Below are positions 2,591 to 7,212 of a DNA stretch of 64,000 bases, piece by piece (positions within the stretch are counted from its first letter, which is position 1; the number at the start of each line of letters is the position of its first letter). The notes under the pieces were generated by a model, which had not been told where the DNA came from, ran no database searches, and saw only the letters and a list, made by a program, of their open reading frames with translations. Location: positions 15,000 through 78,999 of the forward strand of contig CAJPGC010000039.1 of the NCBI GenBank assembly GCA_905339405.1, given 5' to 3'. The position numbers were made by a program, and so were the translations under genes. This stretch comes from an uncultured bacterium (GTDB lineage Bacteria; Desulfobacterota; GWC2-55-46).

Positions 2591-2721
2591 CCCTTTCAGT
2601 TCTCATTATATCATCTGCTGATATTTTGAAAAAAGGAAAGAAATGCGCAGTTACTTTTCCAAAACTGGTTCCACATTAAATCTATTGTGCTTAGAACTGT
2701 ATTCTAAGCCTATCCCCATGG

Positions 2722-3579
2722 TCAAGACAAAAAAGATGGCTGTATATGGTGTAGAAGAGCCTGCCTTGGTTTTGTCTTTGTCTCTGAGTCTTTCCTGATA
2801 TTTCTTTCCTTGAAGTAAACATCCTGAGGCGTCCGGTAGTCGAGGGCCTGATGGAGCCTCTCCGTGTTGTAGAAGTGAAAGTACCTGGCAAGGGACTCTC
2901 TGGCCTCTTTGACGGTCTCGTAGCTCTTAAGGTAGACTTCTTCGTACTTGACCGTCCTCCAGAGCCTCTCAACGAAGATGTTGTCCATTGCTCTGCCCCT
3001 GCCGTCCATGCTGATGGCGACCCCGAGTTTTTCAAGCCGCTCCGTGAACTCAACGCTCGTGAACTGACTTCCCTGGTCGGAGTTGAAGATGTCCGGGCTG
3101 GAAAGAGAAAGCGCCCTTTCCAGTGCCCTTATGCAGAACTCCGCATCCAGCGTCGTCGAGACCTCCCAGGAGAGCACATAGCGGCTGTGCCAGTCCATTA
3201 TGGCCACGAGGTAGATAAAGCCGCCCTTGAGCCGTATATACGTTATGTCCGTTGACCACACGTGGTCAGGGCGCTCTATGACGACGTCCTTCAGGAGATA
3301 CGGATACTTCTTATGGTCCTTGGCTGGCTTTGAGAGCCACGGCTTCGGATATACGGCCTCCAGCCCCAGGATCTTCATCAGACGCCTTACCCTCTTGCGG
3401 TTTACCATGTAGCCCCGGGTCCTGAGCCACTCCGTCATCTTCGGCACGCCGTAGAAGGGTGTCTTCGTATACTGCTCGTCCAGGAGCGTCATAAGGGCCT
3501 CGTTGAGCTCGTTCCGCTCCCTTGCCCTGTAATAGTAAGCCGCCTTAGAGAGGCCAAGAAGCCGGCACTGGCGCGACAC
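2722..3579 (-). CDS. IS3-family transposase OrfB (DDE integrase core, rve); probably expressed as an OrfAB fusion by a -1 frameshift, so the true frame extends upstream to the A9 site near 3650
   Basis: Motifs DITYIRLKGGFIYLVAIMDWHSRYVLSWEV ... NSDQGSQFTS ... ERLWRTVKYEEVY are the canonical rve/IS3 OrfB signature. Confidence 0.85.
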   Translation of the reverse strand: MSRQCRLLGLSKAAYYYRARERNELNEALMTLLDEQYTKTPFYGVPKMTEWLRTRGYMVNRKRVRRLMKILGLEAVYPKPWLSKPAKDHKKYPYLLKDVVIERPDHVWSTDITYIRLKGGFIYLVAIMDWHSRYVLSWEVSTTLDAEFCIRALERALSLSSPDIFNSDQGSQFTSVEFTERLEKLGVAISMDGRGRAMDNIFVERLWRTVKYEEVYLKSYETVKEARESLARYFHFYNTERLHQALDYRTPQDVYFKERNIRKDSETKTKPRQALLHHIQPSFLS

Positions 3580-3619
3580 AGGTATCTCAGAATTCCTTGG
3601 CTCTATTAAGGCTTTCTTC

Positions 3620-3904
3620 TCACTTGCCGAGGAGCTGAGATTTTTTTTTAAGCCAGTCCAGCTCCACCTTGAGCTGCCCTATTTGCCGGTAAAGCTCATC
3701 TGTCTCCGCCGCGTCTTCTTTTTGTTCCTTTCGCCGCCTGTCAGAGAAAAGGCCGGGGAGGTCCTCCAGAAGCCGCTTCTTCCACTGGCCGATCTGGTTT
3801 GGATGTACCCCGTACTCGCTCGCGATCTGGGCTATCGTTTTCTCGCCCTTGACCGCCTCAAGCGCCACCTTAGCCTTGAACGCCGCATCATGATTCTTCT
3901 TCAT
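3620..3904 (-). CDS. IS3-family transposase OrfA (HTH DNA-binding)
   Basis: 94 aa. IAQIASEYGVHPNQIGQWKKRL is an HTH and a leucine-zipper-like C-terminus follows. The final codons LKKKSQ are encoded by the A9 slippery sequence. Confidence 0.85.
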   Translation of the reverse strand: MKKNHDAAFKAKVALEAVKGEKTIAQIASEYGVHPNQIGQWKKRLLEDLPGLFSDRRRKEQKEDAAETDELYRQIGQLKVELDWLKKKSQLLGK

Positions 3905-3926
3905 TCTGCCTGCCTCCTGACCGTTA

Positions 3927-6605
3927 TTAGCAGGCTACCATACACCAAATACCTTTGTCTAAATTTTGGGGAGTATTATATTCAATTATTTTAATTTTCA
4001 TATGATTACCAAGTTCTAAAGAATAGATGTTCAATCCTAGGTGTGACAATTTTGCGATATAAATGAATCCGACAGCAGCTACGCCAAACTCCACAAAAAC
4101 GCCATAATTTTGAATAGAAATTATTTCACCTTCAATAATTGTTCCCGGAGGATAATCATTTATCAATTTTTCTTCTGCATTCAAATTGGTATGTGATTTT
4201 GCTCTTTCTAAATTTAAAAGTGCCGCAGAAATATCAAACAACTTCTCAAAATGTCCATCCTCCAAATATGCCTCCGGCCTAGAAATAAACTCTGCCCTAT
4301 AACTCTGCAAATATTTTGTTAAATCTTCGGCATTCAAGATACTTGTCTCTTGAGAAAAATGACCCTTGCCTGTTTGATTTGTCATTCTTTTCCAAATCCT
4401 ATCAGCCACTTCGCTGTTCTTATACCAAACATCCTCCGAACAAGCAGCCAAATAATCAATATTATTAACCAAGTCTAGATGAACGTGACCTGCCGGAGAA
4501 ATTGACACCAAATCACCCTCATTAATCTGATCAAGATCTTGGGTTTCAGAAACTACAGCCCCAAATTTCAGTAATTGAGCGAGCTCAATTTGTACTTTGT
4601 CAATGGAATGACCTAAAGACACCATATCTGAGCAAAGATCTATAATTTTATGATATCCTTTTATGCCGCTCGGGCCAAACTTTCTATATCTTTTTTCTAG
4701 CCACTGTAAAATCTCTAATCTAATAAAGGGATCAGGTATAATGTCTTCAGGATAAGAAAGAAATAAATTTTTTACTGACGATCCTGCATCCTGAAAATAT
4801 CTCCTATTTCCACGAAGAATGAGTCTCATTATTATGTGTTTTGGCAACGTATAATCACCTTGCGACTGCCTTATCTTTAGAATTTCATCTGGCGTAATAT
4901 GTCCACTTTTACAGAATTCAAGAAAAATTTCCAGCCCTCTCCTTATATCTCGGCCTGAAATTCCAGTTACAATTCTCCTAAAAAGGCTATCTGTAAAAAG
5001 TGATCTCAAGATGCAAGCCAAATAAATACCCTGCTCAGACCGTGGGTACTCAACTCTCATACCATTAGGGAGCACATAGCTTAATAGTTCCTCATCTTTT
5101 TGTTCTCCTCTCTTCTTATTCATCGTAGCCAAAGCAAAACCAATTCGTTTTGCTATTACCTGTGCTAACAATGGTGGGTCGATCCTGAATACTAAATCCT
5201 TTATTACTGTATCAAGTGGCGGTTCCTTACGGTGATGATCAAATGTGGTATCGCGTATTGGTAGAACCACTAAGCACTCAAACTCATTCTGCATCCACTT
5301 TGCGACTTCAAACATCAATAGCTGATCATCCCTTTTCCTTCTGTCACAATTATCCAGAACTACTACTGCCAATTTGCCTCTGTCTCGACACAGATATCTA
5401 ATATAAGCTTTCAAAGAATGTATTGGATTATTAAGGAGGCTTTGTAGTTCTGACGCAATGAGGTTTTTATATTCTACAGTACAAGGGTCAAATATTGCTG
5501 CCGGCCCTTTCTCAATTTTACGCAGTTCAACAGAATATAACTTTCTAAGTGTATTAAGTTCTTCGAAGTCAATATCAGAATACAATTCCTTAAATTTCGC
5601 CATTAGGCTTTCACAAAGCCATTTATAAATTTCCTCTTTGGACAAAGGGGCCTTATTTAAATCAACAGAAAGCCACACTGTTTTATCTTTTATTTCCCGG
5701 TGCAACGCAACTTCTGTTAAATAATCTATAAAGGTAGATTTTCCACTACCAACTCCACCCACTAATAGTAATATTTCATTTTTTAGACTCCAAAGGTTTT
5801 TAAATTTATCGGTTAGTTCTATTGGTCGTCCAGTATCCTGAATTTCTTTTATGCTAGACATTGTTAAAGGTATTGCCGATTTAATTATTCTTTCTATAGG
5901 GCTTACATGGCTTATTCTCTTTTTTGTAGTCACATAAGCATTTTTAACAACATTTTTTCTCTCATCTAATGTGCTCGGATTGAAAAGATAACGGTAATCT
6001 AGTGCTAATGTTGCACCAAAACTGTTTTGTTCTAATTCTTCATTTTGGACTGCTCGACCACCCAACATATTAATCGGTCTTTTAAATGTGGTGCCGCTTC
6101 TTAGAGAATTTAGTTTTGAATTTATAAAATCTGTCAATATTCTTTTTGACCCAAATTCAAGCAATCTAGAATACTTTTCACCTCCTACAAATATTTCATC
6201 AAAGAAAAGACTTACTTGCTCCTCTACGCTATCAGAAAAAGTTGCTACTATTTTCTTGCCATTAGTGGTTAAAATCTTTTGACAGGGGTTTATGTTATGC
6301 GGGAATTTTGCATTTAATTCTTGCGCATACAATCTAGCTTCTGTGCATGCACTTTCCAGTTCCACACTTGGATGTTTAACCTCGATTATCAAAACAGGCA
6401 ATCCTTGAATAAGTATTACATAATCCGGATAGTATAATTTTGAGCTTTTACCCTTTCCAATTACCAACTGTCTTAAATCAACTTTCGTTCTGAATTCAGA
6501 AGTACTGAACCCAAACCCCAGCGGATCAGGCGCAATAAGCATTTGGATAACAAACTTTTGTTCAACATCGCTTTCATTTAATAAATCTTCTATTTTACAA
6601 AACAT
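3927..6605 (-). CDS. Large island protein (892 aa): N-terminal HsdR-N-type PD-(D/E)xK nuclease-like domain, central P-loop NTPase (Walker A GGVGSGKST, Walker B VVVLDNCD, about 130 aa apart, STAND/KAP-like), helical middle region, C-terminal S1/OB-fold domain; the 3' end is overlapped by the IS3 terminus
   Basis: N-terminus SDVEQKFVIQMLI..LGF...YPDYVILIQGLPVLIIEVKHP fits the type I restriction HsdR N-terminal (HSDR_N) PD-(D/E)xK pattern. LLLVGGVGSGKSTFIDYL and LAVVVLDNCD are the P-loop motifs. C-terminus GTIIEGEIISIQNYGVFVEFGVAAVGFIYIAKLS...MKIKIIEY..LDKG fits the S1 pattern G.V.G.V..I..FGAFV..G..GL.HIS. The locus has a strong RBS (GGGAGGG) and is AT-rich throughout. Confidence 0.7.
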   Translation of the reverse strand: MFCKIEDLLNESDVEQKFVIQMLIAPDPLGFGFSTSEFRTKVDLRQLVIGKGKSSKLYYPDYVILIQGLPVLIIEVKHPSVELESACTEARLYAQELNAKFPHNINPCQKILTTNGKKIVATFSDSVEEQVSLFFDEIFVGGEKYSRLLEFGSKRILTDFINSKLNSLRSGTTFKRPINMLGGRAVQNEELEQNSFGATLALDYRYLFNPSTLDERKNVVKNAYVTTKKRISHVSPIERIIKSAIPLTMSSIKEIQDTGRPIELTDKFKNLWSLKNEILLLVGGVGSGKSTFIDYLTEVALHREIKDKTVWLSVDLNKAPLSKEEIYKWLCESLMAKFKELYSDIDFEELNTLRKLYSVELRKIEKGPAAIFDPCTVEYKNLIASELQSLLNNPIHSLKAYIRYLCRDRGKLAVVVLDNCDRRKRDDQLLMFEVAKWMQNEFECLVVLPIRDTTFDHHRKEPPLDTVIKDLVFRIDPPLLAQVIAKRIGFALATMNKKRGEQKDEELLSYVLPNGMRVEYPRSEQGIYLACILRSLFTDSLFRRIVTGISGRDIRRGLEIFLEFCKSGHITPDEILKIRQSQGDYTLPKHIIMRLILRGNRRYFQDAGSSVKNLFLSYPEDIIPDPFIRLEILQWLEKRYRKFGPSGIKGYHKIIDLCSDMVSLGHSIDKVQIELAQLLKFGAVVSETQDLDQINEGDLVSISPAGHVHLDLVNNIDYLAACSEDVWYKNSEVADRIWKRMTNQTGKGHFSQETSILNAEDLTKYLQSYRAEFISRPEAYLEDGHFEKLFDISAALLNLERAKSHTNLNAEEKLINDYPPGTIIEGEIISIQNYGVFVEFGVAAVGFIYIAKLSHLGLNIYSLELGNHMKIKIIEYNTPQNLDKGIWCMVAC

Positions 6606-6624
6606 CTTTTTTCCCTCCCATTAG

Positions 6625-6660
6625 AGAATTTAACAGAAAATAACATTTTTTCAAACAAAA
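6625..6660 (-). promoter_or_regulatory. Putative sigma-70-type promoter for the island gene (minus strand TTGAAA-N16-TAAATT), followed by RBS GGGAGGG 7 nt upstream of the ATG
   Basis: Read from the reverse complement of 6606-6680. The hexamer spacing fits the consensus. No experimental support. Confidence 0.3.
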
Positions 6661-6911
6661 AGGTTGACAGGCGGTCTAACACATCAATGCTGCGTAATGC
6701 AGTTTAATAACAACTGGAACATAAATAAAATTGTCTATCCAGCCCACGAGAATACCGCTGTTTTTTTGTGTTTTTGGATATTACATTATAATCAAGTGTG
6801 GACATTCACACAGTTTCAATGCTTCTGAGTCATACGGTATACTCACCACTACTGAATTAGATCAATGTAAGGGTACTGGAAAAAGGGTTAGCACAAATTT
6901 TTCAGCTAAAT

Positions 6912-7134: not shown

Positions 7135-7212
7135 TTGGTCGGGGCGAGAGGATTCGAACCTCCGGCCCCCGCGTCCCGAACGCGGTGCTCTACCAGACTG
7201 AGCCACGCCCCG
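7135..7212 (-). tRNA. tRNA-Pro (anticodon CGG), CCA encoded
   Basis: Minus strand reads CGGGGCG-TG-GCTC-AGTCTGGT-AGAGC-A-CCGCG-TTCGGGA-CGCGG-GGGCC-GGAGG-TTCGAAT-CCTCT-CGCCCCG-A-CCA. All four stems pair and the anticodon loop is UU-CGG-GA. Closely similar to E. coli tRNA-Pro. Confidence 0.85.

Follow-up and report, generated by a model that had tools for sequence, protein, structure and literature searches.

In the window (the whole 64,000-nucleotide stretch of DNA that we analyzed), the best explanation for the 3' end of one island gene, and one in which we have high confidence, is the insertion of an IS1447/ISGlo6-like IS3-family element (positions 2705–3980) after codon 875, accompanied by a 3-bp target-site duplication and an exchange of the protein's tail. 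On this reading, the element transposed directly behind codon 875 (GAA), duplicating those 3 bp, and the gene now runs 17 codons into the left inverted repeat and stops at an IS-borne TAA (3927–3929). As the first IS-derived codon still encodes Tyr, 15 native residues (SSKHNRFNVEPVLEK) have been exchanged for 16 foreign ones (NTPQNLDKGIWCMVAC), and the native codons and stop at 2651–2701 persist intact but untranslated. This is ordinary biology: an ordinary, probably recent insertion that will not surprise a specialist.

The element is complete, 1,276 bp long and on the minus strand, with boundaries set by two other copies. The copy on contig L002 lies in another context and is 100% identical over all 1,276 bp, with identity beginning at 3980, so the terminus at about 3972 in the original prediction was off by 8 bp. 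A second copy, L020 (93% identical), diverges directly past 2705, after GGCTTA. The IS ends read TATAATAC.../...GGCTTA, in register with ISGlo6 and with an element of Desulfosarcina sp. BuS5. The core of the left terminal inverted repeat, on the orfA side, is TATAATACTCCCCAAAATTTAGACAAA (3954–3980, minus strand), and that of the right one is TAAGCCTATCCCCATGGTCAAGACAAA (2705–2731, plus strand); weaker repeats extend these to about 3930 and about 2764, respectively. Left and right repeats match ungapped at 16 of 27 positions, and at a further 18 of 23 after a 9-nt offset. The 3-bp target-site duplication that had been suggested as a check is present as TTC at both ends: at 3981–3983, where it reads as GAA (Glu875) of the island gene, and at 2702–2704. 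Its length falls within the 3–5 bp of the IS3 family. The right end of the L002 copy coincides with a contig end, which leaves the second duplication uncheckable there. The termini of the window IS are TA...TA and not the 5'-TG...CA-3' of the IS3 family, the deviation described for the IS1447 subgroup. Alternative TG...CA ends (2698–2699 and 3983–3984, with GAATA inside the repeat) were rejected because L002 diverges from the window outside 3980. A search for further copies within the 64-kb window found none, and the four loci that a scan of the genome collection with the IS left end recovered were cut or consisted of short left-end fragments, none of them offering a right end that could be used.

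The interrupted reading frame (3927–6605, minus strand) encodes a chimeric protein of 892 residues with an HSDR_N nuclease-like domain, an ORC/STAND-like P-loop NTPase and an S1 domain that lacks β5. As originally proposed, its C-terminal residues and stop are IS-encoded, the stop lying within the orfA-side terminal inverted repeat; the IS contribution amounts to 17 codons (Y NTPQNLDKGIWCMVAC) plus the TAA (3927–3980, minus strand) rather than to roughly 1–15 residues. The native 3' end does survive across the IS, where AT-rich island DNA resumes: orphaned codons 876–891 (Y SSKHNRFNVEPVLEK) are followed by a TAA at 2651–2653 (2651–2701 in all, minus strand). Conceptual removal of the IS together with one duplication, 1,279 bp (3n+1), gives an 891-residue ORF that ends in IIEYSSKHNRFNVEPVLEK and a stop, with the native tail ...IIEY-SSKHNRFNVEPVLEK. 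This tail is homologous to that of the family: the C-terminal consensus of 115 homologues is Y-N-x-E-H-x-[RK]-F-x-L-K-[LP], and its conserved His (92 of 115) and Phe (105 of 115) are both in the reconstruction. We built a family-specific C-terminal HMM because Pfam S1 scores failed to discriminate between alternative tails (31.7 bits for the native versus 30.5 for the chimeric tail). With this HMM, the reconstruction reaches 94.5 bits, its alignment extending to position 91 of the 93 in the profile, versus 80.5 bits for the chimera and 76.3 for a truncation at the Tyr. None of the 87 columns that are invariant across the family alignment is altered in the window protein. A comparison with the anti-phage defense systems of PADLOC-DB 2.0 gave no significant match, only fragments at E ~0.01 (AriA, REase_I, mad3), and apart from its domains, the island protein received no family name from the PADLOC and PDB sequence searches.

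Two other placements of the junction have to be weighed. The original prediction put the IS end near 3972 and had the island frame continue for about 6 codons to RLRIQF, with a stop at 2691. A minus-strand ORF ending there does exist (2691–3053), and its short RLRIQ could superficially resemble the last S1 strand, with Pfam aligning it to position 59 of 74. However, the start of that ORF lies within the IS, and the codons for RL (2706–2711) are IS DNA. The two frames could be joined only by removing a multiple of 3 bp; since the IS plus duplication is 1,279 bp, the RLRIQF frame does not join the island ORF. Nor does this version gain anything in the family HMM (80.4 bits, against 80.5 for the chimera and 94.5 for the +1-shifted reconstruction), and it lacks the conserved His and Phe. 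We regard it as extremely improbable; the boundaries taken from independent IS copies refute the junction, and the real tail has 15 residues. It is also decidedly unlikely that the element is 1,274 bp long (2705–3978) with a 5-bp duplication, TATTC, like IS2-type members. The direct repeat is indeed identical over 5 bp (2700–2704 and 3979–3983), and assembly-graph break points are unable to separate the 1,274-bp and 1,276-bp versions. The longer identity, however, reflects a native Tyr codon that likewise starts with TA; each of the six independent left ends opens with T(A/G)TAATACTC, as do ISGlo6 and the BuS5 element, the inverted repeats align gap-free when both bases are included (TCCCCA at 9–14, AGACAAA at 21–27), and IS1447-type elements produce repeats of 3–4 bp. 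Both versions lead to the same empty site and reconstructed protein.

Returning to the 1,276-bp element, its two genes lie on the minus strand. orfA (3620–3904) encodes 94 residues with a helix-turn-helix (HTH_Tnp_1) and ends in ELDWLKKKSQLLGK, and orfB (2722–3579), which carries the DDE (rve) transposase domain, lies +1 relative to orfA in a frame that stays open upstream through a run of nine As. With NCBIfam transpos_IS3 (cut-off 160), orfB reaches 278.9 bits, and Pfam rve, rve_3 and HTH_21 also match the transposase. A helix-turn-helix orfA followed by an orfB in another frame, to be fused by recoding, is the IS3-family layout; the call of an intact IS3-family element was sound. The A9 run had also been located correctly (3641–3649, minus strand); it lies at the 3' end of orfA in the context TGGCTTAAAAAAAAATCT, and, as in IS1447/IS120-like elements, OrfAB requires a +1 shift there. 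A transcript with A8 joins orfA to orfB in a 393-residue OrfAB. On this frame analysis we infer that the window IS would make OrfAB by +1 transcriptional slippage, one A being dropped from the run in the mRNA as has been demonstrated experimentally for IS1447, and not by −1 ribosomal frameshifting. The copy looks transposition-competent. A CAGCUC/GAGCUG hairpin is possible 9 nt upstream of the run, with a fold no better than that of shuffled sequences (z = −1.35).

The relatives of the element link it to IS1447-type elements. The search for members of the IS1447 subgroup asked for an OrfAB identity of 35% or more across 50% or more of the IS1447 OrfAB (PMC6211511); the window OrfAB is 43% identical over 362 aligned residues of 393 (~92% of the length). 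Like the window IS, IS1447 (ISfinder group IS120), from Clostridium thermocellum, carries two ORFs, the second (orfB) in the +1 frame, along with an A9 run, 5'-TA instead of TG termini, long, weakly matching inverted repeats and 3–4 bp direct repeats (PMC6211511), and the slippage site TGGCTTAAAAAAAAATCT (W-L-K-K-K-S) is identical in the two elements (Table S3 of PMC6211511). They differ in that sequence identity is only moderate, slippage was measured in IS1447, and the window IS resides in a Desulfobacterota MAG, whereas the IS1447 subgroup has been described as Firmicutes-enriched (PMC6211511). The nearest relatives found are from Thermodesulfobacteriota. Identity to OrfAB rises from 54% in an Aminomonas element to 57% in ISGlo6 (plasmid pGLOV01 of Trichlorobacter lovleyi SZ) and 64% in the BuS5 plasmid element. 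The latter two share with the window IS the left terminus TATAATACTC, the orfA end ELDWLKKKS, the A-run and the +1 orfB. ISGlo6 is also similar in length (~1,279 bp), but its right end is TG where the window IS has TA. DNA identity to these two elements is only 64–67%, so the window IS is distinct and apparently unnamed. The classical IS3-family elements IS911, IS3, IS150 and IS2 likewise have a helix-turn-helix orfA and a DDE/rve orfB, need the OrfAB fusion for transposition, measure 1.2–1.5 kb and make a short target duplication; their recoding, by contrast, is a −1 ribosomal frameshift at A6G-type heptamers and their ends are TG...CA, where the window IS has a predicted +1 shift on A9 and TA...TA ends.

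The A9 run could instead be a degenerate site or a disabling indel in a dead copy, or a signal for −1 ribosomal frameshifting as in IS911 and IS3, and the original prediction had read it in the latter way. Frameshifting of this kind on A6G-type motifs is usual in the IS3 family (PMC6211511). Yet changing the run to A8 or A11 gives 393 or 394 residues, whereas A10, equivalent to the −1 frame, meets a stop after 99. The A9 run is unchanged in three independent assemblies, and the A9, +1 layout is common to IS1447, ISGlo6 and elements of Bacillus and Aminomonas; the BuS5 element is also +1, its Leu codon CTA lengthening the run to A10. Among 52 cDNA clones of IS1447, moreover, 9 had A8 and 8 had A10 (PMC6211511). 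We therefore consider a dead copy or −1 frameshifting highly improbable. A different question is whether the chimeric protein is still fully functional, with the IS-coded GIWCMVA standing in for β5. RNA-binding S1 domains (PF00575; the repeats of ribosomal protein S1, MJ1198 with PDB 2k52) have a five-stranded OB fold, as in the island family. In the AF2 model of a homologue (P0004, pLDDT 87), β4 spans 870–879 and β5 spans 884–889 (KFNLKP), the segment that matches the displaced native codons. The window allele has IS-encoded sequence in place of the fifth strand, and its five-stranded barrel is incomplete: the Pfam S1 model covers positions 4–38 of 74 in the window protein versus 3–66 of 74 in the reconstruction. 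The change is thus larger than the remodeling of only the extreme C-terminus first envisaged; the β4–β5 turn and the whole of strand β5, including the conserved H..[RK]F.L motif, are lost, and the S1 domain is for this reason probably damaged, with the nuclease-like and NTPase parts untouched. Full function is favored by the intact remainder of the gene, by an AF2 model in which residues 887–891 form a strand, and by the identical chimeric protein deposited in a second NCBI record. Weighing against it, pLDDT of the modeled tail is below 50 (including 879–886; the means for the two final 10-residue blocks are 46 and 49), the motif is missing, and the same tail occurs on an unrelated truncated ORF at the L002 copy, which marks it as a side effect of the frame left open at the end of the IS. 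A fully functional chimera is thus unlikely. Loss of S1 function would be expected, perhaps short of complete, given the low-confidence strand that AF2 predicts for WCMVA.

The left end of the IS indeed provides a frame without stops, through which any gene that it enters acquires the same 17-residue tail (YNTPQNLDKGIWCMVAC). The identical element is known from two insertions, both in the 3' part of defense-type genes: the nuclease–NTPase–S1 gene of the window and, at L002, a RelA/SpoT-like ORF adjoining a GmrSD gene. That the IS preferentially disarms or re-tails costly defense genes of AT-rich islands, its hydrophobic tail partly replacing the S1 strand, seems to us very unlikely.

The insertion is probably recent, as had been supposed, and probably still polymorphic in natural populations. 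The two IS copies are 100% identical. In other samples, contig L003 consists of exactly 30 nt, the IS and another 30 nt, contigs L009 and L010 begin exactly at the duplication, and L006 begins 30 nt inside the IS. Such break points, on the assumption that Logan contigs come from a k=31 graph, are signatures that suggest the coexistence of occupied and empty alleles, and hence a recent event. Direct searches recovered no IS-free allele for the comparison that had been proposed: an exact 24-nt junction scan for the empty site in JGI metagenomes gave 0 hits, and an exact look-up of the reconstructed 891-residue protein showed it to be absent from a collection of 15 billion proteins. Besides the chimera itself, its 90% cluster contains one unrelated representative of 49 residues and nothing else.

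These results bear mostly on annotation. The 892-residue protein as deposited (CAG1066465.1, and likewise the call made in the MAG) is a chimera with the IS; the native product has 891 residues, and its S1 domain is complete. For the transposase, the appropriate annotation is a +1 slippage fusion, neither two genes nor a −1 frameshift product. The locus offers a dated-looking example of an IS entering a candidate defense gene, and it brings uncultured Desulfobacterota into the range of IS1447-type +1 slippage elements.

The IS3-family element sits on the minus strand inside the 3' end of the island gene (3927-6605, minus strand), in a stretch of 31-41% G+C (~2619-6900) with one large gene, the 892-aa ORF; the element itself has a G+C content of ~52-58% and the host flanks 55-63%. 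It carries orfA (3620-3904, minus strand; 94 aa; HTH_Tnp_1 domain) and orfB (2722-3579, minus strand; 285 aa; HTH_21, rve and rve_3 domains), the latter scoring 278.9 bits against NCBIfam transpos_IS3 (cut-off 160). In outline, the original reading is borne out: an IS has entered the gene at its 3' end, a real and ordinary event. The boundary, the native tail, the extent of damage to the S1 domain and the direction of the frameshift given there all require correction.

The 64-kb window contains this one copy of the IS and no further ones, so the search for copies was extended beyond it. Looking up the exact orfB protein retrieved a second, 100% identical copy in another context (L002, Logan SRR34449294), in which the identity starts at window position 3980 and extends for 1,276 bp to the contig end, at the base equivalent to 2705. 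A 93%-identical copy found by a pattern scan of JGI metagenomes (L020) diverges from the window directly past ...GGGGATAGGCTTA, i.e., after 2705. A left-end sequence scan of GTDB representative genomes yielded four more independent left ends, and all six (these four, L002 and the window) start T(A/G)TAATACTCCCC, as do ISGlo6 and the Desulfosarcina BuS5 element. With these two leading bases included, both ends align without gaps (16/27 positions matching) and share the initial TA, TCCCCA (positions 9-14) and AGACAAA (positions 21-27). Because of the independent copies and this gap-free alignment, we set the limits of the IS at 2705-3980 (1,276 bp), moving the terminus from the about 3972 first proposed to 3980. 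The flanks then carry the 3-bp target-site duplication that was to be looked for, TTC at 2702-2704 and 3981-3983 (GAA on the gene strand). Since the flanks are in fact identical over 5 bp (TATTC), an element of 1,274 bp with a duplication of 5 bp is formally conceivable, and the empty site would be exactly alike under either reading.

With the element taken as 1,276 bp, the occupied junctions read ...AATTGAA followed by TATAATACTCC and ...GGGGATAGGCTTA followed by GAATACAG, and the IS-free junction predicted by our reconstruction is 5'-AAAATTAAAATAATTGAATACAGTTCTAAGCACAATAG-3'. The four GTDB loci (L016-L019) come from MAGs, three of them deltaproteobacterial and one of Actinomycetota; they contain stretches of 53-202 bp that are 82-91% identical to the IS left end and all begin T(A/G)TAATACTCCCC; where the locus permitted a check, transposase similarity stops. 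These may be solo-end remnants or the ends of distant relatives.

The IS plus one copy of the duplication amounts to 1,279 bp, or 3n+1, and removing it in silico yields an ORF of 891 aa that ends ...KIKIIEY-SSKHNRFNVEPVLEK and whose stop codon occupies 2651-2653. A database search returned 1,097 homologues of the island protein at E <= 0.001 (the best 57% identical), mostly of 880-910 aa and covering 98% of the query, with the extreme end of the query unmatched. The C-terminus of 115 full-length homologues follows Y-N-x-[ED]-H-x-[RK]-F-x-L-[KR]-[LP]-[IV], with His in 92 and Phe in 105 of the 115. The reconstructed tail, Y-S-S-K-H-N-R-F-N-V-E-P-V, matches this motif; neither the chimeric tail encoded by the IS nor the tail originally proposed does so. 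Against an HMM built from the last 95 residues of the homologues, the reconstruction scored 94.5 bits, its alignment reaching position 91 of the 93-position profile, versus 80.5 bits for the chimera, 80.4 bits for the original version and 76.3 bits for the sequence cut at Tyr. The native end first suggested (...RLRIQF, stop at 2691) was rejected, being in the wrong frame: it demands a 3n deletion, and it opens with codons that belong to the IS.

In the 892-aa protein, the N-terminus is HSDR_N nuclease-like, the core is a P-loop NTPase and the C-terminus is an S1 domain, of whose 74-position Pfam profile only positions 4-38 are matched. We mapped the S1 strands on an AlphaFold model of the homologue P0004 (pLDDT 87, pTM 0.80), which places beta1 at 822-831, beta2 at 834-839, beta3 at 843-848, beta4 at 870-879 and beta5 at 884-889 (KFNLKP). 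The insertion point equates to the end of beta4 in this model, so the IS is predicted to displace the turn and the entire beta5, which is more than the extreme C-terminus that had been thought to be remodelled. When the chimera itself was modelled, pLDDT stayed below 50 over residues 879-886, and WCMVA was drawn as a strand at low confidence. Residues 1-876 are unaltered, and the window protein retains 87/87 invariant columns of the family alignment.

The insertion looks young on several counts: the identity between the two IS copies is 100%, the duplication shows no mismatch, and the orphaned tail retains its conserved motif and stop. The chimeric protein also appears in a second NCBI record, CAG1066465.1, and the insertion is therefore not an assembly artefact. 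Contig break points are further, indirect evidence of a young age, if Logan contigs are taken as products of a k=31 de Bruijn graph. One contig (L003, SRR13926677; window 4008-2675) consists of exactly 30 nt, the occupied-specific segment and 30 nt, the bubble branch expected at this k if occupied and empty alleles coexist. Two others (L009 and L010; SRR25397369 and ERR12380222) begin precisely where GAATA does (2704), at this k the first k-mer common to both alleles. L006 comes from a sample with several copies of the IS (SRR34449294), and its start, 30 nt into the element, is what a repeat boundary would give. The empty allele itself was retrieved neither by a junction scan of JGI metagenomes nor by an exact look-up of the 891-aa protein.

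In L002 (2219-3875 of SRR34449294_4226), the ORF that holds the identical IS in its 3' part is 144 aa long and lies downstream of a GmrSD_N gene. Its match to RelA_SpoT is weak and truncated (E = 5e-4; positions 1-76 of the 113 in the profile), and it enters the IS in the same frame as the island gene, with the same IS-coded tail, YNTPQNLDKGIWCMVAC*. On the other side of the island gene from the IS is a tRNA-Pro CGG (7136-7212, minus strand). Logan contigs of three samples all stop at 7139, within the tRNA-Pro 3' end, and those of two other samples begin at 2618; together with the drop in G+C (31-41% vs 55-63%), these ends suggest a single-gene island of ~3.2 kb without the IS, adjoining tRNA-Pro. 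No integrase or obvious att repeat was seen. Promoter-like sites, as consensus matches only, occur at 2696-2730 and 2605-2632 on the minus strand. Two such sites have their -35 (TTGTCT or TTGACC) in the right inverted repeat of the IS and their -10 either at the junction of IS and flank or spanning it, and face the MEDS/PAS gene (1292-2581). This gene also has a stronger promoter-like site of its own (TTTTCA, 16-nt spacer, TG-TATAAT), with 10/12 consensus matches.

The island protein itself has no matching PADLOC model. Foldseek groups the core of the P0004 model with Cdc6/ORC, RdrA (RADAR) and CED-4/Apaf-1-type NTPases and its C-terminus with S1 domains, and overall it looks to be a nuclease-NTPase-S1 protein, as yet uncharacterised, of a type found in defence islands. 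Family members are typically ~885 aa, occur in many phyla and carry source labels such as 'type I restriction endonuclease', 'S1 RNA-binding domain-containing protein' and 'ribosomal protein S1'. The query's own 90% cluster (P0121 / P0122) was missing from the homology search because its representative is an unrelated 49-aa sequence, which looks like a clustering artefact of the protein collection.

The transposase frames do not fit the programmed -1 frameshift originally proposed. Counted within the IS, orfA occupies frame 2 and orfB frame 0, which puts orfB at +1 with respect to orfA; a -1 reading (the same as A10) stops after 99 aa, and A8 (one A removed) or A11 (two added) gives an orfA-orfB fusion transposase, OrfAB, of 393 or 394 aa. 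A hairpin can be drawn upstream of the A-run, but without statistical support. The same frame layout has been reported for IS1447 (ISfinder IS120), whose orfA ends with an A9 run and which has 5'-TA termini and 3-4 bp direct repeats; among its cDNA clones, 9/52 had A8 and 8/52 had A10, and the full transposase is encoded solely by the A8 (+1) product (PMC6211511). Its slippage site, ...TGGCTTAAAAAAAAATCTG (PMC6211511, Table S3), is identical to ...TGGCTTAAAAAAAAATCTC in the window. OrfAB identity to the window element is 43% for IS1447, 54% for a +1-slippage element of Aminomonas paucivorans, 57% for ISGlo6 and 64% for the BuS5 plasmid element, and the last two share with it the ELDWLKKKS site and a +1 orfB. 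The annotated transposase CDSs of ISGlo6 (T. lovleyi pGLOV01, L023:485-1658; 1,174 nt) and of the BuS5 element (L024:668-1787; 1,120 nt) are both 3n+1 in length, so that skipping one base at the A-run is already part of the public annotation of these relatives. For the window element, we infer that OrfAB would be made by +1 slippage. The IS is a new, unnamed member of an IS1447/ISGlo6-like +1-slippage lineage within the IS3 family.
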